From UHGV virus genome UHGV-0091736: DNA of 64,000 bases. The stretch is one strand, 5' to 3'. The DNA comes from a virus. How positions within the stretch are numbered: position 1 is the first letter of the stretch; each line of letters starts with the position of its first letter. The notes under the pieces are model-generated. The model saw nothing but the letters and a program-made list of their open reading frames with translations, was not told where the DNA came from and made no database searches. Shown here piece by piece: positions 1-42,403 of the stretch. The position numbers were made by a program, and so were the translations under genes.

Positions 1-527
1 GCTTCGAGGGTTTCCCTGTTAACCCCCTACTCCCGCAGGATAGTCTCTACACTTTCCACTTTCGAATCCATCTACAAGCGATTCCAAAGCTCACACCAAA
101 CCTTTCTGCAAGAGCAACACCAGTGCATTCATTGTTAAGCCAGAACTCTTTAGCAGCATCCTGTCTTTCTCTATTTCTGCCAGTGTTTGATTCAATAGCA
201 TGTGCACTACCTTCTAAGATTTCTAGATGGTCAGTATTACAACAAGCTCTATTCTTGCATTTATGGTTAACTTCATAACCGTCAGGAATTTTTCCAAATT
301 CCTCTTCCATGACGTATCTGTGATACATGACCCATTTGCCATTTATCACTTTTCGAAAGTAACCGTCTTTATTTAATTTGTGTGAGATAGGGATGATACA
401 TCCTGTGCTAGTTGTTTCTAGCACTAGATCTTTCTTAGCCATATCACCTCCTAATAGCTTAGCTCGGTATTGCCCTCAACTTAATGGTCGGGTTTCACCG
501 AGTTCACCAACTTTTACATGCACAATG
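1..527 (-). mobile_element. putative group I-type intron in the DNA polymerase gene (partial, runs off window start); carries HNH ORF 47-442
   Basis: Pol ORF loses similarity to T7 gp5 just before motif C (HDE) and ends HCACKSW*; DNA at the break (TGTGCATGTAAAAGTTGGTGAACTCGGTGAAA...GAGCTAAGCTA) closely matches DNA at the primase-helicase break (12440-12548). Confidence 0.5.
47..442 (-). CDS. HNH homing endonuclease (intron-encoded)
   Basis: 131 aa; His-Me finger motif EVNHKCKNRACCNTDHLE; SD AGGAGG upstream; sits inside the polymerase insertion. Confidence 0.7.
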   Translation of the reverse strand: MAKKDLVLETTSTGCIIPISHKLNKDGYFRKVINGKWVMYHRYVMEEEFGKIPDGYEVNHKCKNRACCNTDHLEILEGSAHAIESNTGRNRERQDAAKEFWLNNECTGVALAERFGVSFGIACRWIRKWKV

Positions 528-2225
528 AAGTTTATGCATATCAATTACCTTAGCACAACGAACTCCATCCTTCTCAATCCACTTGTTAAGGAACATCATA
601 GCGTATTTCATAACAACAGCACCAGCACATTGCAGGAGTGTGTTAAGTGCTTTATGAACCATAACTTTACCAGTGGCATCTCGTCTCATTGTAATCTTGC
701 GACCATCAACACCAATCAAGTACCCTTGAGCAGCTTTCTCTGTCATGCGATCAATGAGGATTGCAATACATGGGTTCTCTGCCAAGAAACGTGCTCGCAT
801 CACTGAACCTTCATCAGCCCCGCCACCTACAATTGAACCAAGCTTAGCATCACCAGCACCATAGTTGAATGCATAGATAAATGTCTTAGCATTGTCACGA
901 GTAGGGAGACCAGCAAGTTTCTGGTTGTGGGAGTGGATATCCCCTTCGAGGAGAATATCACGATACATAATAGCAGAAGCTAAACCGCGTTCTGCCAGAG
1001 CTTTCTTAGCTGGATTATTCTCTTCGATTGCTTCAGCAAGCATATCTCTACATTCTTTGATGAGGTAGTGAGCGAGCATACGAAGTTCAAGTCCAGAACC
1101 ATCATACCCTAAGAATACTTCTTTACCAGCGGGTATGTAATATTTGTAAGCACCTACAGGTTTGTCTTTCTTCCCCGGCTTACCTTTCTCGTAAATTACG
1201 TTAGTACCTTTTCGTATATAACAACCATCAGGAACAACGTTAGTAATAACGAAAGGACGAGAGTGATCACTGTCTGAGTTATAGTCAGACTCAAACAAAC
1301 TGCGACACTCGTGACCAAACAAACCACGGGAGGGAATATTAACCACGATACGATGTTTGAATCGAAAAGTCGGCGTAGCGCAGCTGTTAGCTTCTGCCGA
1401 AAGTTTACCATCTTCGCGTTCCTTTGCTATAAGTCCACTGATAAGACCTAGCCTGTGAGCCGCTACAACACGTCTCTTAAGCAAACTTCCAACACTCCCT
1501 AGCTCACCCCCTAACCCTTCTTCAAGAGTCTCCTCGAGGTTTGTAGGAGCTGTAGGCCACTTGTTTGATGTAGCTAGTGCTTTCTTAATCTCATCAAACG
1601 TTACAGGGTTACGGCGATTAGGGTTTAATCCCAAACCAAACACGTAAGCCTTCATGTAATTCTTAGTCTTAAACCTAAAATGCTTTTCTAAGAATTTCTT
1701 GATATCAGCGTCAACCATCTCGGCTGTCTGCTTCTGCTTAGCACTGCCTCTCATCCAAGCAGTGTACCAAGCCTGATATGTTCCATACTTTCGCATGTCT
1801 TTCTTAATTTCGAAAGTATTCCAAGGCTTCTTAGATACGTTAAACTCTGGAGGAAGAAAGCCCTCATCCATAAGAGCTTCTTTAACTCGTGCATCTTTCG
1901 ATGGGTCAAAGTCTACATATTCTACACAGGTGAATGCTCCACCAATGTCTTCTCTCTTCAGCCCAACCCTATCACAATAAGCTTGAGGCCACTTCTGCAA
2001 AGCACCAGACTTCTTAAACGGCTTCATGTAAGTAGAGCCATCTAATCTCATCTTAGGTAAGAGAGGAATCAACTCTCTATCAATATTAACAATAATCTCT
2101 TTAAGGAGGTGAACATACCACCGAGCATTTCTTCGGTTGAAACTCACTCCGTGCTTTGCTTGCTTAGAGATTATATCAGCGACAGTCATCTCTGTCAAAA
2201 ATGGAAGAGCGTCCGGGTTGCTCAC
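504..2225 (-). CDS. DNA polymerase, family A, T7 gp5-like polymerase domain (5' exon; exon probably ends near 525, motif C lies beyond window)
   Basis: 573 aa; motif A YDGSGLELRMLAHYL; motif B RDNAKTFIYAFNYGAGDAKLG; GVDGRKI...HKALNTLLQCAGA matches T7 gp5 C-terminal region; thumb region alignable to T7 thioredoxin-binding segment. Confidence 0.9.
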   Translation of the reverse strand: MSNPDALPFLTEMTVADIISKQAKHGVSFNRRNARWYVHLLKEIIVNIDRELIPLLPKMRLDGSTYMKPFKKSGALQKWPQAYCDRVGLKREDIGGAFTCVEYVDFDPSKDARVKEALMDEGFLPPEFNVSKKPWNTFEIKKDMRKYGTYQAWYTAWMRGSAKQKQTAEMVDADIKKFLEKHFRFKTKNYMKAYVFGLGLNPNRRNPVTFDEIKKALATSNKWPTAPTNLEETLEEGLGGELGSVGSLLKRRVVAAHRLGLISGLIAKEREDGKLSAEANSCATPTFRFKHRIVVNIPSRGLFGHECRSLFESDYNSDSDHSRPFVITNVVPDGCYIRKGTNVIYEKGKPGKKDKPVGAYKYYIPAGKEVFLGYDGSGLELRMLAHYLIKECRDMLAEAIEENNPAKKALAERGLASAIMYRDILLEGDIHSHNQKLAGLPTRDNAKTFIYAFNYGAGDAKLGSIVGGGADEGSVMRARFLAENPCIAILIDRMTEKAAQGYLIGVDGRKITMRRDATGKVMVHKALNTLLQCAGAVVMKYAMMFLNKWIEKDGVRCAKVIDMHKLHCACKSW

Positions 2226-2649: not shown

Positions 2650-2934
2650 TTAACCTTTTGGGAATGGCATTAAAGACTCCATAGCAGATTTAATTTTGCT
2701 ATTGATTCGAGCATCTCTATAAGAGATAAACTTACCTTTGCTATCTCGTAACATCACATGAGTTCTGGCTGTTGTGTTAGGAAGTAATGTAATCCCAGTT
2801 GGGATATTGTCAACCCCCACAGGGAGTTTGTGAATAGTCTTACTTTCAGTTAATAGGTAAGACCAAGTAATTGGTTTACGATCTGTTCGATTAGGATATG
2901 TGTCTCGAATCTGAACCATAGCTAATTTATTCAT
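2650..2934 (-). CDS. hypothetical protein, tandem paralog of 2936-3187
   Basis: 94 aa; shares RDSKGKFISY...PFPKG with neighbour (ADGKFISY...PFPKGV). Confidence 0.55.
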   Translation of the reverse strand: MNKLAMVQIRDTYPNRTDRKPITWSYLLTESKTIHKLPVGVDNIPTGITLLPNTTARTHVMLRDSKGKFISYRDARINSKIKSAMESLMPFPKG

Positions 2935-2935
2935 A

Positions 2936-3187
2936 TTAAACTCCTTTAGGGAATGGGATGAGGTTTTCTACTGCAACACGAAAAGATTTTTCTACATTCT
3001 TATTCTTATAAGAAATGAATTTACCATCAGCACCACGAAGGATTACGTTAGTACGAGCTGTATTGGAAACTAAAGTGATCATAGAGATGGTGTTATTTTT
3101 TGAGTTGTTGTAGTTGTTATCGAAAGTCCACTTATCCAGACGATCATCCATTACATCAATAATAGTTACAGTTTTTACGATAGACAT
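2936..3187 (-). CDS. hypothetical protein, tandem paralog of 2650-2934
   Basis: 83 aa; conserved GKFISY and C-terminal PFPKG. Confidence 0.55.
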   Translation of the reverse strand: MSIVKTVTIIDVMDDRLDKWTFDNNYNNSKNNTISMITLVSNTARTNVILRGADGKFISYKNKNVEKSFRVAVENLIPFPKGV

Positions 3188-3222
3188 ATTTGTTACCTAA
3201 GAAGTTTAGTTTGGTTTATATA

Positions 3223-3250
3223 AAAGAAAAGGCCACCCATTTGGGTAGCC
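3223..3250 (-). terminator. rho-independent terminator after basic-protein gene
   Basis: minus-strand GGCTACCCaaatGGGTGGCC followed by TTTTCTTTT. Confidence 0.6.
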
Positions 3251-3255
3251 TTATA

Positions 3256-3573
3256 TCATGATGAGCTTAAAGCTCCTTTGCGTGCTCCAGCTGCTTTTCC
3301 AGCTCGATCACCACTTTTGCCGCCGTTTGAACGGTTTGAGCTGACTGATTCAACACGTAAGTTGCTTGACGCATTAGAGCCTCCAGACTTGATAGCTCGT
3401 TTGTGTCCAACGTCTTTACCTCTGACAGCAGCTTTTCCATCGCGCTTTTCAACGATGCGACGTGCACGGTGGCGCTGAGCATCTCCGCTCTTGCTCCCAA
3501 TGCCTGTTTCACCACGGGCAATTGCGGTACGTCTTTCTTGTGCATAATCTCTCTTTCCTACATGGTCTGCCAT
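3256..3573 (-). CDS. small highly basic Gly/Ser/Arg/Lys-rich protein (putative nucleic-acid-binding)
   Basis: 105 aa; SD AAGGAG 7 nt before ATG; G-rich first codon position; late-type TAATGTATA motif about 37 nt upstream; terminator immediately downstream. Confidence 0.55.
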   Translation of the reverse strand: MADHVGKRDYAQERRTAIARGETGIGSKSGDAQRHRARRIVEKRDGKAAVRGKDVGHKRAIKSGGSNASSNLRVESVSSNRSNGGKSGDRAGKAAGARKGALSSS

Positions 3574-3609
3574 TTAAAACTCCTTAACATATCAGTGTAC
3601 ACTAAGGAG

Positions 3610-3618
3610 TATACATTA
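3610..3618 (-). promoter_or_regulatory. TAATGTATA promoter-like motif (minus strand)
   Basis: same 9-mer occurs at 47721 and 63306 about 35-40 nt upstream of start codons. Confidence 0.4.
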
Positions 3619-3629
3619 TAAGTTACTGT

Positions 3630-5348
3630 TTAAGCTTTCTTTTCCATTGCTTTAACAATCGCCTTACAGAAACCAGAACGAACAATATCATCTGATTCAC
3701 CATCTACAATCTCAGCAAACTCATACAGATCATGTTCATCAATAAAGTTAGTAGCCCAAGTAAGACCACTCTCACGACCACGCATATCATGCTGGTTAGT
3801 ATCACCCATGCAGAACAGCTGAGAGGTTTCTCCCAATCGAGTCATGATTGAGAAGGCTTCATCTTTAGTTGTGTTCTGGAACTCATCCACGATAACAATG
3901 GCATCATTGAAAGAGCGACCACGGAGATATTCCAGAGGTACAAATTCAATGTTACCATTTCCGATTTGGCATTCATAGAACCCCTTACCATATCGCTGAG
4001 TAATAACATCAATGATAGGCATCAGGTATGGTTCAAACTTCTCACGCATCCCCCCCGGAAGTAACCCAAGAGAGTTACCCATGCCGACCGAAGGGCGACT
4101 CAGAATGATCTTCTGAATCTTACCACTCTTCAGTGCATCAATAACTGTGGAAGTGATTACAAAGGTCTTACCACAGTTACCTGTCACGAAAATGTTATCA
4201 TCTCGACGGAGCAACAGAGCACCTGTTGAGGTTGTAAAGCAATATTTAAAACCATCCTCCGTCTTCATCTTTGTGATCACAGCTTTCCCAGATTGTGGGT
4301 TGTTTGGGGTAATACTGATATGTGTCTGTTTAGAGAAATAAACACGATACTCTAGAGATTTACGAGTATATCCACCATACTCCCGACCAACTCTGTCGTA
4401 AGTTATGATAGATGATTTGTAACCACACTGCATTCCTACAAACTGGATATAGTCTGCATCATCTTTATCGGAAGTAAAGAAAGGTGGTAGTCTATTTCCT
4501 TGTAGGGCAAAACCCCCGTCCCAGAATTTAATCTCATCAAAGATGATTTTAGCATCACTCTTGTTACACAAAGGCCAGTCTTTATACCTTTTAGTCGCAC
4601 CTAGAAGAGAGAAAGATATTACATGAAACCCTGTATCATCTGACTTTTCTGAGTAATCTAAATGGAGAGTATCCAATAACTCTTTGAGTCGAGAAATCTT
4701 CCTCTCTTTCTTTAATCTGAAGACGAATCGCGAGGTGGACTCTGTTTCCAAGTGGGCATCAGCCTTGATGGCAACATGAAGACGTAATTCAGGTTCAGAT
4801 AGACCTAAACTTTTCCCTGAAACAAAGTTGGATGTAGTTTTAATTAGACCCTCAAACCCTATCTTCTTCTTGTGGTGCCTTGAAAGAAGATCAGATACCT
4901 TGATTTTGTTCGCTTTGTCTTTATCTCCCTTACGATAATAAACGACATTATGGTCATCACATAACGCCTGAGATATCCCACGGTATGTTTTAAACAAGTT
5001 CAACTCTTTACACTCTTGTTTAATATAAGCTACAGGTTTTTCTAAATGAGACTCTCCTGTGGTTAAGTTTACTGCTGTTATTAAATCACCTTCCACATAG
5101 TCAGAAATCTTTTTCCATCCAAACTCTGAGAGAAACTCGGTATCCTTATCAACACAGCCCGCAGGAGCGTCTGTGAACACAACTTGTTTAGTCTTAATAG
5201 CATTGAGTAGCTCAGACTGAAACTGGTTCTGAGGGACTACAGGCTTTGCTAAAACCACCTCTTCATACTCTCGCTTACCCTTACGAGTAACAAGTGCTTC
5301 CCGACGAAGGTCTTTCCGTGATTCTTTCCTTGATTGACGACGACTCAT
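3630..5348 (-). CDS. phoH: PhoH-like ATPase interrupted by an intein
   Basis: 572 aa; P-loop reconstituted as DAPAG + CGKT across the insert; PhoH motifs LSRPSVGMGNSLGLLPGG, VIVDEFQNTT, MGDTNQHD. Confidence 0.8.
   Translation of the reverse strand: MSRRQSRKESRKDLRREALVTRKGKREYEEVVLAKPVVPQNQFQSELLNAIKTKQVVFTDAPAGCVDKDTEFLSEFGWKKISDYVEGDLITAVNLTTGESHLEKPVAYIKQECKELNLFKTYRGISQALCDDHNVVYYRKGDKDKANKIKVSDLLSRHHKKKIGFEGLIKTTSNFVSGKSLGLSEPELRLHVAIKADAHLETESTSRFVFRLKKERKISRLKELLDTLHLDYSEKSDDTGFHVISFSLLGATKRYKDWPLCNKSDAKIIFDEIKFWDGGFALQGNRLPPFFTSDKDDADYIQFVGMQCGYKSSIITYDRVGREYGGYTRKSLEYRVYFSKQTHISITPNNPQSGKAVITKMKTEDGFKYCFTTSTGALLLRRDDNIFVTGNCGKTFVITSTVIDALKSGKIQKIILSRPSVGMGNSLGLLPGGMREKFEPYLMPIIDVITQRYGKGFYECQIGNGNIEFVPLEYLRGRSFNDAIVIVDEFQNTTKDEAFSIMTRLGETSQLFCMGDTNQHDMRGRESGLTWATNFIDEHDLYEFAEIVDGESDDIVRSGFCKAIVKAMEKKA
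4176..5156 (-). mobile_element. intein (327 aa) inside PhoH Walker A motif
   Basis: Begins C-VDKDTEF (block A like), TGESH (block B TxxH), ends FVTGN followed by +1 Cys of CGKT; in frame, no stops. Confidence 0.6.
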
Positions 5349-39516: not shown

Positions 39517-39544
39517 GTTGTTGATAATGTAGAAGGAGTATAAA

Positions 39545-40087: not shown

Positions 40088-40699
40088 ATGTCACTAGATA
40101 AACAAATTTATGAAGCTCTAACTGGTAACAATCTTAGTGTAGATGAAAAGAAAGCACTATTGAATATGTTGAAAGAGCGTGACCAATGGAGGAAGTATAA
40201 TAGGATTTTGTCTTTCAAGGCGTATGACTTCCAAAAGAAATTTTATGCAGCAGGATTGAAGCATAGGTTCAGGTTTCTCTGTGCGGCTAACCGAGTTGGG
40301 AAAAGTTACAGTGAAGCGTACGAATTCGCATGCCACGTTACCGGAAGATATCCAACATGGTGGACCGGTCATAAGTTTAAGAGGCCAATACTTGCGTGGG
40401 CTGTAGGGATTACAGGGGACTCAACAAGGAAAGTATTGCAAAAAGAATTATTTGGTACACCAATTGGAAAGGACACTAATCTGCTAGGTACTGGAGTTAT
40501 TCCACGAGATGCAATAGTAATAGATACTATAGAAAGGGATGGTAATAAGCTACAGATAGTACAGATTAAGCACCAGAATGAAAGGGGTGAGTTTGATGGA
40601 TTAAGTACGTTAGAATTTCGATCAACACAACAGGGTGAACATACACTGATGGGTGCTACTGTTGATTATATATGGCTGGATGAAGAGGATTGTATATAA
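40088..40699 (+). CDS. terminase large subunit, 5' exon (ATPase Walker A/B)
   Basis: Walker A AANRVGKS; Walker B YIWLDEE; ORF stops 5 codons after DEE. Confidence 0.8.
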   Translation: MSLDKQIYEALTGNNLSVDEKKALLNMLKERDQWRKYNRILSFKAYDFQKKFYAAGLKHRFRFLCAANRVGKSYSEAYEFACHVTGRYPTWWTGHKFKRPILAWAVGITGDSTRKVLQKELFGTPIGKDTNLLGTGVIPRDAIVIDTIERDGNKLQIVQIKHQNERGEFDGLSTLEFRSTQQGEHTLMGATVDYIWLDEEDCI

Positions 40700-41479
40700 C
40701 ATAGCTAGAAGTGTTGGTCCTCTATAAACTCGGTGAATTGCTGGAACCTCTGACCCTTAAGTGGAAGACAATCAGCAGCGAAGATAATGTATAACTTACT
40801 CATGATACATTATAACGTTCAACGACTATCGAAAGCATAGCCCGTATGGGTGAAGAAGCAAGTAGAGTAGATACCAAGTGGTATCGAAGTGCCGAGCAAA
40901 ACTAAGGAGTGATACATTGGGTAGACCTAACAAATCATTAGATTCAACCAAAACATGTTCAGTGTGCTCTGTAACAAAAGACATAGAATCTTTTGCAATA
41001 AGAACAAGAGCAATATCCACTGGAGAGGTTAGAATCTACCGTAAGTCTCAATGCAAAGAGTGCATGGCTGAGATGAGAAGGGATTGGGGTAAGAATAATC
41101 CAGATAAGATTCGTGAGAATAATAATTCTCCAAATAAGAGAGCTTGCGATAATGCAAGACGGGCTGGATTAGAAACTGCTTCTATTATCAGAGATGATGA
41201 GTATAATAAATTTGTTATGGAAGAAATGTATGAACTTCGAAATCTTAGAACAAAGGAAACTGGATTTCAATGGCATGTAGATCACATAATCCCTTTAAAA
41301 GGTAATAACGTATGTGGTTTTCATGTCTGGTATAACTTGCAGGTAGTTCCTGCTGTTTTCAACCTATCTAAGAGTAATAGTTTTGATGATATAGTCTGCT
41401 CTGCATGGAAACATGCAGCTGGAGAAATCCGGGATGAGATTAACGATCTTGTCTGAACAACACGCCATATGAGTCTATG
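40691..41479 (+). mobile_element. putative group I-type intron splitting the large terminase gene; carries HNH ORF
   Basis: ATPase motifs resume at AIFAQCV...TATPENG in 41477 ORF; no SD before exon 2; insert has AAACTCGGTGAA block shared with the polymerase and helicase insertions. Confidence 0.6.
40878..41456 (+). CDS. HNH homing endonuclease (intron-encoded; start may be TTG at 40917)
   Basis: Zn-finger CSVCS...CKEC plus HNH core [38 protein letters not shown]. Confidence 0.7.
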
Positions 41480-42403
41480 GCTATATTCGCACAGTGCGTC
41501 ACACGTACACTCACAACTAAAGGTCTAGTTACAATTACAGCTACACCAGAGAACGGTTTAACTGAACTGGTAGATAAATTTATGAAAGGTGAAGGGGATG
41601 AGAACACAGGTTCTCTATATTTCCAGAATGCTTCTTGGTGGGATGCTCATGCAGACCTAGGTGGACATATCACTGACCAAGATATAAAAGATATGACTGA
41701 AGGTATTCCAGCGTGGCAGTTAGAGATGCGTTCGAAAGGTATGCCATTGTTAGGAAGTGGTTTGATATATGATGTATCGGATGACACAATTAAATGTGAA
41801 CCATTCGAAATTCCTGATACGTGGAAACGTGTCTGTGCAATTGATATTGGTATTGATCACCCAACTGCTGCTGTTTGGACAGCTTACGATGCAAACACGG
41901 ATACTGTCTATGTTTACGACTCATATAAAGAAGGTGGCTTTACTCCAGTGTATCATGCTCCAGCTATTAATGGTCGTGGTCAGTGGATTCCTGTCATCCT
42001 ACCGCATGATGCGGACAATATTGAGAAAGGTAGTGGATCATCTGTTGCTCAATTCTATAAGAATGCAGGAGTTAATGTACAGAGTGAGACCTTCTACAAC
42101 AAAATTGGAATGGATGGTAAAAAGAACTTCTTTGTAGAACCCGGAATCACAGATATCCGAGAAAGAATGATGAGTGGACGCTTTAAAATCTTTAACACAG
42201 CTGCTAACGCTAAGCTATTCGAAGAGAAAGCTAGATATCACCGCAAGGTTGGTAAGATTATTAAAGAACATGATGACTTAATGGATGCAATGCGCTATTC
42301 AGCGTGCTCTGTTACACATCGTGGTCGCTCTAAGCATGACGTTAGCTACGGAAGTGCTTCTCTGTATGAGGCAAACGTAAGCAGATGGAATCAGAGTTAC
42401 TAA
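41477..42403 (+). CDS. terminase large subunit, 3' exon (ATPase motif III and nuclease domain)
   Basis: TATPENG coupling motif; CAIDIGIDHPTAAVWTAYD...VYVYDSY nuclease-type acidic motifs. Confidence 0.8.
   Translation: MAIFAQCVTRTLTTKGLVTITATPENGLTELVDKFMKGEGDENTGSLYFQNASWWDAHADLGGHITDQDIKDMTEGIPAWQLEMRSKGMPLLGSGLIYDVSDDTIKCEPFEIPDTWKRVCAIDIGIDHPTAAVWTAYDANTDTVYVYDSYKEGGFTPVYHAPAINGRGQWIPVILPHDADNIEKGSGSSVAQFYKNAGVNVQSETFYNKIGMDGKKNFFVEPGITDIRERMMSGRFKIFNTAANAKLFEEKARYHRKVGKIIKEHDDLMDAMRYSACSVTHRGRSKHDVSYGSASLYEANVSRWNQSY

Follow-up and report, generated by a model that had tools for sequence, protein, structure and literature searches.

Gene 58 of the coliphage phiEco32 is one of the six genes of this phage (6, 13, 26, 40, 58 and 68) for which promoters dependent on the phage sigma factor gp36 have been identified experimentally (PMC8948821; PMC4331800). 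The consensus of these promoters, tAATGTAtA, is a single element without a -35 box that is recognized by E. coli RNA polymerase carrying gp36 (PMC8948821, PMC4331800), and in phiEco32 the gp36-dependent start sites lie 6–8 bp downstream of this element (PMC8948821). The equivalence of gene 58 with SU10 gp56, 172-1 ORF72 and 7-11 gp068 is tabulated in the supplement of PMC8948821. Among HNH proteins, Gme HNHE (Gmet_0936, PDB 4H9D) is a Mn-dependent nicking endonuclease of about 100 amino acids. Here we describe a gene encoding a small basic protein in UHGV-0091736, a stretch of viral DNA of 64,000 nucleotides (hereafter the window). This 105-amino-acid open reading frame (ORF), located at 3256–3573 on the minus strand, is the ortholog of phiEco32 gene 58 (phi32_58), SU10 gp56 and 172-1 ORF72. 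We consider it highly probable that the gene is expressed from the gp36-dependent promoter P58 as an HNH-fold protein. The overall explanation that we favour, with some reserve, is that of a P58-driven gene 58 ortholog whose product would be an HNH-type nicking or DNA-processing nuclease.

The window originates from a Kuravirus (phiEco32-like coliphage). A megablast search with positions 2900–4000 matched 99 phage records at 80–95% identity, all of them phiEco32-like coliphages and Shigella phages (Kuravirus, Gordonclarkvirinae). The phiEco32 protein is 97.6% identical to the window protein over tblastn-aligned residues 1–83, and the promoter element, leader and terminator of phiEco32 are those of the window gene, with nothing essential different. 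The main departure is that phiEco32 possesses an extra gene 59 between gene 58 and PhoH, whereas the window gene directly adjoins a PhoH gene (3630–5348) that is probably intein-bearing. On its other side lie two small paralogs followed by the DNA polymerase gene (504–2225), so that the gene sits inside the replication block, as the earlier note on this DNA had stated. The gene is labelled 'hypothetical' in nearly every Kuravirus record and in most Bruynoghevirus records among the matches listed. The transcription unit comprises the following features.

3256–3573, minus strand: coding sequence of the 105-amino-acid basic protein, PHROG 4590, under purifying selection, with the product of the SU10 ortholog (gp56) seen by mass spectrometry and homologs in 254 phage records.
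3610–3618, minus strand: promoter element TAATGTATA (P58) for host RNA polymerase with the phage sigma factor gp36, an exact match to the published consensus tAATGTAtA.
3602–3604, minus strand: predicted P58 transcription start, obtained by applying the published 6–8 bp geometry to the window sequence.
3220–3252, minus strand: intrinsic terminator with a 10-bp GC-rich stem, a 4-nt loop and a T-rich tail (-17.5 kcal/mol, z = -4.25).

The P58 element, read from 3618 to 3610, is separated by 36 nt from the ATG start codon (3573–3571). Four exact copies of TAATGTATA are present in the window against 0.61 expected, a number reached in none of 100 shuffles, and the relaxed pattern [TA]AATGTA[TG]A occurs at six sites. 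Three of them, at 39525 (one mismatch), 47721 and 63306 on the plus strand, each lie 5' of late-strand genes; two others, at 8528 (a variant) and 3618 on the minus strand, lie within the leftward cluster, and the sixth, at 40785 on the plus strand, lies within an insertion splitting the TerL gene. The P58 element is the same in seven Kuraviruses, and its position and flanks are those found in phiEco32, SU10 and 172-1. The published promoter table gives P58, with the exact TAATGTATA, for six Kuraviruses. Neither the promoter nor the transcription unit is thus new to the literature, so that the finding as first stated adds little. The earlier note had placed a motif upstream of the ORF and the same motif before late structural genes on the other strand; the first is the published phi32_gp36 consensus, mapped experimentally as P58, and the second agrees with the sites at 39525, 47721 and 63306. 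Its wording of a 'late-type promoter' is right in that the same phage-specific class drives late structural genes, but P58 itself probably groups with the middle gp36 promoters: a passage of the SU10 paper counts three middle and three late gp36 promoters, and the three leftward-strand ones, P58 included, would form the middle class. In the distantly related phage 7-11, a validated phage-sigma late promoter, P69, which uses another sigma factor and another consensus, is located one gene upstream of the homolog gp068, indicating that phage-sigma control of this gene is conserved beyond Kuraviruses.

The site at 40785 was found in a putative mobile element. The TerL gene is split into an N-terminal part (40088–40699) and a C-terminal part (41477–42403, both plus strand), and the insertion matches the Rfam group I intron family RF00028 at 40672–41418 (45 bits, E = 4.9e-10, just below the gathering score of 50). 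Within the insertion is an ORF for an endonuclease (40878–41456; PHROG 1035 'endonuclease VII', HNH type), preceded by the exact TAATGTATA about 93 nt upstream. Positions 40700–40900 gave no megablast match to the phage collection. A mobile intron in TerL appears to borrow the phage late promoter.

The 105-amino-acid frame is a real gene. In a codon alignment of seven Kuravirus orthologs, the variable columns at codon positions 1, 2 and 3 of this frame number 23, 10 and 49. Compared with three divergent Kuraviruses (81–85% nucleotide identity), amino acid identity is 86–92% in the main frame, against 59–66% in the +1 frame and 57–66% in the stop-containing +2 frame, and homology beyond the genus is entirely in the main frame. 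Judged from these substitution patterns, the frame is under purifying selection. In addition, SU10 gp56 (10.8 kDa) has been detected by mass spectrometry with two peptides and 18.3% coverage (SU10 proteomics). The predicted protein contains 16 Gly, 15 Ala, 15 Arg, 14 Ser and 10 Lys but no Cys, with a molecular weight of 10.9 kDa and an isoelectric point of 11.5; 25 of the 105 residues are Lys or Arg. The gene is preceded by the Shine-Dalgarno (SD) site AAGGAG at 3585–3580, 6 nt 5' of the ATG, and the terminator stem (3252–3229) begins 3 nt past the stop codon. The earlier description of a 105-amino-acid ORF encoding a highly basic, Gly/Ser/Arg/Lys-rich protein, with a strong SD and a strong terminator immediately downstream, was therefore accurate on all these points.

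Searched against PHROG, the window protein matches family 4590 (E = 9e-41, of unknown function) and, weakly, the HNH family 7785 (E = 0.049). Its assignment to the HNH superfamily comes from its relatives. The Pfam models HNH, HNH_3, HNH_4 or HNH_5 are matched by 39 of 89 close homologs and by 44 of 128 wider homologs, and homologs linked to the window protein at E ≤ 1e-20 match PF01844 and PF13392 (best E = 2.3e-10). Membership is therefore transitive, since these matches come from linked homologs and not from the window protein itself. A profile of the wider family searched against PDB sequences retrieved HNH domains only (Cas8f-HNH, 0.08; AceCas9, 0.37; Gme HNHE, 0.58), the family pattern vDH...GG...NL...N being aligned with LDH...GG...NL...N. 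An AF2 model (predicted local distance difference test score, pLDDT, 74.5; predicted template modelling score, pTM, 0.57) shows a beta-beta-alpha unit preceded by two N-terminal helices and followed by a tail modelled with low confidence, and its neighbours in BFVD are phage proteins labelled 'HNHc domain'. Residue numbers are those of the full-length protein including Met1, which was omitted from the alignments and the AF2 model (offset -1). The predicted protein features are the following.

3328–3417, minus strand: HNH (beta-beta-alpha-metal) core, residues 53–82, made of beta1 with KDVGH, GG, N71-L, beta2 and a helix with N80.
3403–3405, minus strand: codon of His57, the predicted general base, which is the sole invariant residue in 128 diverse members and is aligned to the DH-motif His in the Cas9 and Cas8f HNH domains.
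3259–3327, minus strand: basic Gly/Lys/Arg/Ala-rich C-terminal tail, residues 83–105, with a pLDDT of about 52–56 over the last three blocks.

Besides His57, nine residues (Arg8, Tyr10, Glu13, Arg34, Arg38, Gly64, Gly65, Asn71 and Asn80) are conserved in at least 90% of the 128 members, and the tail motif GGK.G..AGKAAG.RKG is kept in close relatives. The putative active-site residues (14 between H57 and N71, 9 between N71 and N80) are spaced exactly as H54, N68 and N77 are in Gme HNHE. However, the two proteins are only about 15% identical, Gme HNHE has D53 before its His where the window protein has G56, and it lacks the basic Gly-rich tail. Its Cys4 zinc site (C38, C41, C73 and C76) is replaced by V41, R44, S76 and S79. 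An H-N-N spacing without the Gme zinc ligands suggests an H-N-N type HNH fold without structural zinc, like the HNH domain of Cas9. The HNH domains of Cas9, IscB and Cas8f, which are the best sequence-profile matches, have the DH...N...N pattern in common with the family and need no structural zinc. They are nevertheless domains of large RNA-guided effectors, whereas the window protein stands alone and the Kuravirus members do not have the Asp. A different class is formed by the terminase-associated HNH proteins (HK97 gp74 type, GVE2 HNHE and the nicking HNHEs of Xu and Gupta), which have a [CxxC]2 zinc site; the window protein has no cysteine. The HK97 gp74 type also adjoins terminase and portal genes, in contrast to the window gene, which belongs to the replication module between PhoH and DNA polymerase while TerL is located at about 40.1–42.4 kb. 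On the evidence of profiles and model, the protein is thus a divergent, zinc-free, minimal member of the HNH superfamily and not a novel kind of protein.

Homologs were found by tblastn in 254 phage records, including all 99 Kuravirus-type records, where they occupy the same locus position. Pseudomonas Bruynoghevirus homologs (PaP3, LUZ24 and tf type) are about 60% identical over residues 8–80, and others were detected in Aeromonas, Vibrio, Proteus, Cronobacter, Salmonella and Photobacterium phages. A profile search extended the family to 961 representatives at 50% identity and at least 7,994 clusters at 90% identity, mostly of 85–110 amino acids and on phage-sized contigs. The gene is also syntenic, flanked by DNA polymerase on one side and by an exonuclease or helicase gene on the other. 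Judged from sequence conservation and synteny, the gene is vertically inherited as a core gene. Two types of neighbourhood were recognized in the family. The first is the replication module, where the gene has as its neighbour DNA polymerase A, a PDDEXK nuclease, a separate 3'-5' exonuclease, or a primase or helicase (Kuravirus, GAP52, 7-11, PaP3, PhCF1.2, LAh_8 and several metagenomic contigs). The second is the beginning of the late operon, where the gene precedes TerL and portal either immediately or by two to three genes. The homolog of ICP2, among tail genes, and that of Pecta, after lysis genes, are exceptions. The mini-HNH also occurs at the C-terminus of metagenomic proteins of 450–958 amino acids (P0151, P0153, P0158, P0159, P0196 and P0207) and of a 252-amino-acid protein (P0180). 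The N-terminal parts of the large fusion proteins belong to no Pfam or PHROG family and have no match in isolated phages, and are therefore uninformative on function.

The leader between P58 and the gene has features of its own. In T4, the transcripts of genes e, 49 (endonuclease VII) and I-TevI carry a hairpin that sequesters the SD and is opened when transcripts start at the late promoter. In the window, the sequence CTCCTT at 3609–3604, which forms the 6 nt between the P58 element and the predicted start, is the exact complement of the SD AAGGAG. This sequence is absent from the other gp36 promoters and invariant in seven Kuraviruses. Two arms can be drawn.

3598–3610, minus strand: 5' arm of the predicted leader hairpin, containing the anti-SD CUCCUU (3609–3604), which exists only in RNA begun upstream of P58.
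3579–3591, minus strand: 3' arm of the predicted leader hairpin, containing the SD AAGGAG (3585–3580).

The 42-nt leader including the anti-SD is predicted to form a 13-bp hairpin burying the SD (-10.7 kcal/mol, z = -2.18). By contrast, an RNA begun at 3604 is essentially without structure, with the SD unpaired (minimum free energy -2.9 kcal/mol, a value equalled or bettered by 196 of 200 shuffles). From promoter to SD, 45 nt are virtually identical in the seven Kuraviruses, with a single A/G position, and the leader is kept even in three of them whose coding sequence differs by 15–19% and whose sequence farther upstream is unrelated. The terminator search of the window found no terminator between PhoH and gene 58. 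Read-through RNA coming from upstream early promoters would thus have its ribosome-binding site masked in the hairpin, whereas the mRNA initiated at P58, which lacks the anti-SD arm, would be open to ribosomes and freely translated. From these predicted folds, the leader may gate translation of gene 58 by promoter choice. The arrangement resembles that of T4, in which a phage-factor promoter is likewise located inside the 5' arm of an SD-sequestering hairpin so that only transcripts from this promoter expose the ribosome-binding site; T4 uses gp55 and the Kuravirus leader gp36, the Kuravirus case being a prediction. We also observed a perfect 10-bp palindrome, AGTGTACACT, at 3594–3603 on the minus strand, corresponding to predicted positions +1 to +10 of the P58 transcript and identical in the seven Kuraviruses. 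This palindrome may belong to the leader hairpin, or it may serve a dimeric regulator as operator. No Rfam family was found in 3150–3700, only sub-threshold terminator-like noise.

At the other end of the gene, none of 200 shuffles folds as well as the terminator stem. The terminator is kept in five of the seven Kuraviruses, with changes confined to the loop in 172-1, phiEco32, PAS59 and Bas87, and the GAP52 homolog has a different terminator downstream. That the gene is monocistronic, as the earlier note has it, is a deduction; SU10 and Bas89 have an extra gene directly after the stop codon. In these two phages the terminator is displaced by a Cys/His-rich 97-amino-acid ORF (positions 861–1154 of the SU10 locus) and by an HNH homing endonuclease gene (positions 1809–2303 of the Bas89 locus). 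The junction after the gene 58 stop codon looks like an insertion hotspot.

Taken together, we propose that host RNA polymerase core with sigma gp36 would transcribe the gene from P58, on from the middle period and remaining on during late expression, and that the transcript would end largely at the intrinsic terminator 3 nt past the stop codon. The protein may be held on DNA by its tail and N-terminal helices and would nick or cut this DNA, with His57 acting as the general base, a metal bound by Asn80, and Asn71 in the role of the structural Asn. Its target would be replicated phage DNA at the replication-to-packaging stage, where it could act in concatemer or branch processing, in recombination or in help to the terminase. 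The alternation of the family between DNA polymerase and TerL neighbourhoods fits a role at the replication-to-packaging interface, and so does the fact that two lineages whose promoter consensus sequences are unrelated both place the gene under phage-sigma timing. On this view the protein would not be structural, nor would it be a selfish homing enzyme. On present sequence evidence, the chances that it is an active nuclease in DNA processing are finely balanced.

Several observations weigh against this proposal. The window protein itself has no Pfam or NCBIfam match at E ≤ 1, HNH models included, and the profile of its close homologs gave no meaningful match in Pfam, NCBIfam and PDB sequence searches. 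The Asp that precedes the catalytic His is replaced by Gly56 in all Kuraviruses, although D-H is found in most other members; this Asp of the DH dyad is a metal ligand in Cas9, I-HmuI and Gme HNHE. In a few other branches the equivalent position is occupied by Gly, Asn or Val, and an acidic residue of the D54 type is then usually present two positions upstream. The structural Cys4 zinc site is also absent. The nuclease activity of the family is predicted from sequence and model, and a dedicated strong promoter, SD and terminator would fit an enzyme no better than an abundant protein needed in stoichiometric amounts. As for a role in packaging, the window gene is not beside the terminase, terminase adjacency being found only in remote homologs. 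Shared packaging machinery between the window and the contigs with TerL-adjacent homologs was considered and rejected, BLASTP of portal and TerL giving E = 0.03–2.5 and no detectable similarity. The idea of a terminase helper thus lacks two defining marks of the HK97 gp74 class: in this genome the gene does not adjoin the terminase, and the protein has no [CxxC]2 zinc site. Concerning the leader, the hairpin has modest statistical weight (z = -2.2, 10 of 200 shuffles), and its invariant sequence shows no covariation.

Since Gly56 and the missing Cys4 zinc site could mean a nuclease-dead DNA binder, the main alternative is an abundant DNA-binding or architectural protein, possibly internal to the virion, whose HNH fold would serve only as a scaffold, phage DNA being coated or condensed late in infection by the basic tail and the helices. 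The isoelectric point and the 25 Lys and Arg residues fit such a protein, the dedicated gp36 promoter, strong SD and terminator imply high expression, and several other branches also have Gly, Asn or Val at the metal-ligand position. The presence of the ICP2 homolog among tail genes and of family members as C-terminal domains of large proteins of unknown function points in the same direction. However, the invariance or near-invariance of His57, Asn71 and Asn80 across a very large and divergent family is hard to explain without catalysis. Moreover, D54-V-G-H, with an acidic residue two positions upstream of G-H, recalls DRGH, the active motif of Serratia-type nucleases. The proteomic data do not support a virion location either. 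SU10 gp56 was detected in a sample concentrated with polyethylene glycol and not purified on caesium chloride, where it appears only among contaminating non-structural proteins; the SU10 paper groups it as a 'middle gene product' together with thioredoxin, PhoH, DNA polymerase and sigma factor. The LUZ24 group also carries a homolog, and the summary given in the tf paper treats the nine LUZ24 virion proteins only as late-cluster products. We therefore regard this alternative as unlikely. Of the earlier suggestions, that of an internal virion protein finds no support, its sole proteomic detection being the SU10 preparation; that of a DNA-binding protein keeps a plausible DNA-interacting role, but the divergent HNH nuclease fold makes the protein more than a basic binder.

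A second alternative is that the protein is the sequence- and strand-specific nickase responsible for the single-strand interruptions of LUZ24/tf-like (Bruynoghevirus) genomes, with equivalent nicks in Kuravirus DNA. Bruynoghevirus DNA is nicked in a strand-specific manner at TACTRTGMC, and the literature searched (PMC3517423, PMC11780129, PMC3634792) does not say which enzyme of tf/LUZ24-like phages makes these nicks. The mini-HNH family is an obvious candidate. Every Bruynoghevirus record among the tblastn matches listed has a homolog, about 60% identical over the core, and small phage HNH proteins are typically nicking enzymes. In another nicked phage the nicks return late in infection, which would fit the timing of sigma gp36. 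An identity of about 60% would lead one to expect a similar specificity, yet the motif is at chance level: TACTRTGMC is present in the window in 2 copies for 2.09 expected, and ACTRTGAC in 5 copies for 4.79 expected. No report of nicks in Kuraviruses was found in the literature searched. A de novo k-mer search of the window gave no exact 9–12-mer with at least eight copies, the top strings being codon-periodic or ribosome-binding-site/start-codon sequences. An exhaustive search for degenerate motifs identified CAGAGNANNCT, with 17 sites in the window against 3.3 expected, 15 on the minus strand and 2 on the plus strand, in both transcription directions (for example at 742, 6236, 38677, 40281 and 63190 on the minus strand, with five grouped at 38.7–42.3 kb). 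As a nick motif CAGAGNANNCT was rejected: in the related phage Bas89 its distribution is 5:5 and near expectation, so that the bias in the window is probably a multiple-testing artefact, or else a lineage-specific quirk. We judge the nickase alternative improbable.

It is very improbable that the gene encodes a free-standing homing endonuclease and is thus a selfish HNH gene that has settled close to the gene for DNA polymerase. The HNH fold, the many HNH homing genes of Kuravirus genomes and, in Bruynogheviruses, the position of the gene between two DNA polymerase parts would be consistent with this possibility. But the gene is not sporadic, being present at the same position in every Kuravirus record (all 99 matching), and it shows about 60% identity and synteny across genera as well as purifying selection. 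With about 100 amino acids, it has no separate DNA-recognition domain, as compared with the HNH_3-type homing genes of 130–175 amino acids of the same window. It also has its own regulated promoter, with phage-sigma control conserved even in 7-11.

The last alternative, that the overlapping frame is translated instead of gene 58 or as a second gene, can for practical purposes be dismissed. The frame in question is the following.

3267–3545, minus strand: overlapping +1-frame ORF of 92 amino acids, not a gene but a by-product of amino acid composition.

This ORF is open with a conserved ATG in all seven Kuraviruses compared and shows weak coiled-coil-like Pfam noise. Nevertheless, it evolves about as fast as the +2 frame, substitutions gather at the third codon position of the main frame, cross-genus homology is confined to the main frame, and the ORF has neither an SD of its own nor a homologous family. 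That it stays open is expected, Leu, Ile, Val and Met codons being scarce in the main protein: when this protein is recoded synonymously, the +1 frame remains open over at least 92 codons in 18% of cases, against 0% for windows of other genes. The earlier reservation that this frame could not be excluded can thus be lifted.

Further observations concern the neighbouring genes. The PhoH-like gene (3630–5348, minus strand) encodes 572 amino acids, compared with about 245 in phiEco32, SU10 and 172-1. The insert of about 325 amino acids is located within the Walker A motif (...APAG|C...VTGN|CGKT...) and matches PHROG families of intein-bearing ribonucleotide reductase and terminase; from these matches it is probably an intein. 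The DNA polymerase ORF (504–2225, minus strand) encodes 573 amino acids, compared with 614 in its orthologs, and is followed by an HNH homing-endonuclease ORF at 47–442 (PHROG 6254). The polymerase gene is probably interrupted near its 3' end by an intron or a homing gene, as in the 'joined' annotation of Bas89. A perfect sigma-70 consensus promoter (TTGACA, a 17-nt spacer, TATAAT and an extended -10 TG, with 12 of 12 matches) is present at 2170–2198 on the minus strand, within the first 55 nt of the polymerase ORF. Directly 3' of the gene 58 terminator, the tandem paralogs at 2936–3187 and 2650–2934 (minus strand) both belong to PHROG 6814, of unknown function. One of them is called 'autotransporter adhesin' in some GenBank records, which looks like a mis-annotation.

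What is new in our analysis is a functional lead, a cysteine-free minimal HNH domain, for a 'hypothetical' gene belonging to a very large uncharacterised phage family. A bolder proposal would make the PHROG 4590 mini-HNH family an unrecognised zinc-free class of late-acting phage DNA-maturation nucleases, the LUZ24/tf nickase or a podophage terminase helper, gated in Kuraviruses by a promoter-embedded anti-Shine-Dalgarno hairpin; we hold this to be something of a long shot. The remaining interest of the locus lies in the size of this uncharacterised family, in the Asp-to-Gly change in the active site of the Kuravirus members and in the possible gating of the leader by promoter choice. If real, the anti-SD hairpin embedded in the promoter would be a compact coupling of translation to sigma-factor choice. 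Should the protein prove to be an active nickase or to help in packaging, this would be relevant to the origin of the localised nicks in LUZ24/tf-like genomes and to the way in which these podophages process replicated DNA for packaging.

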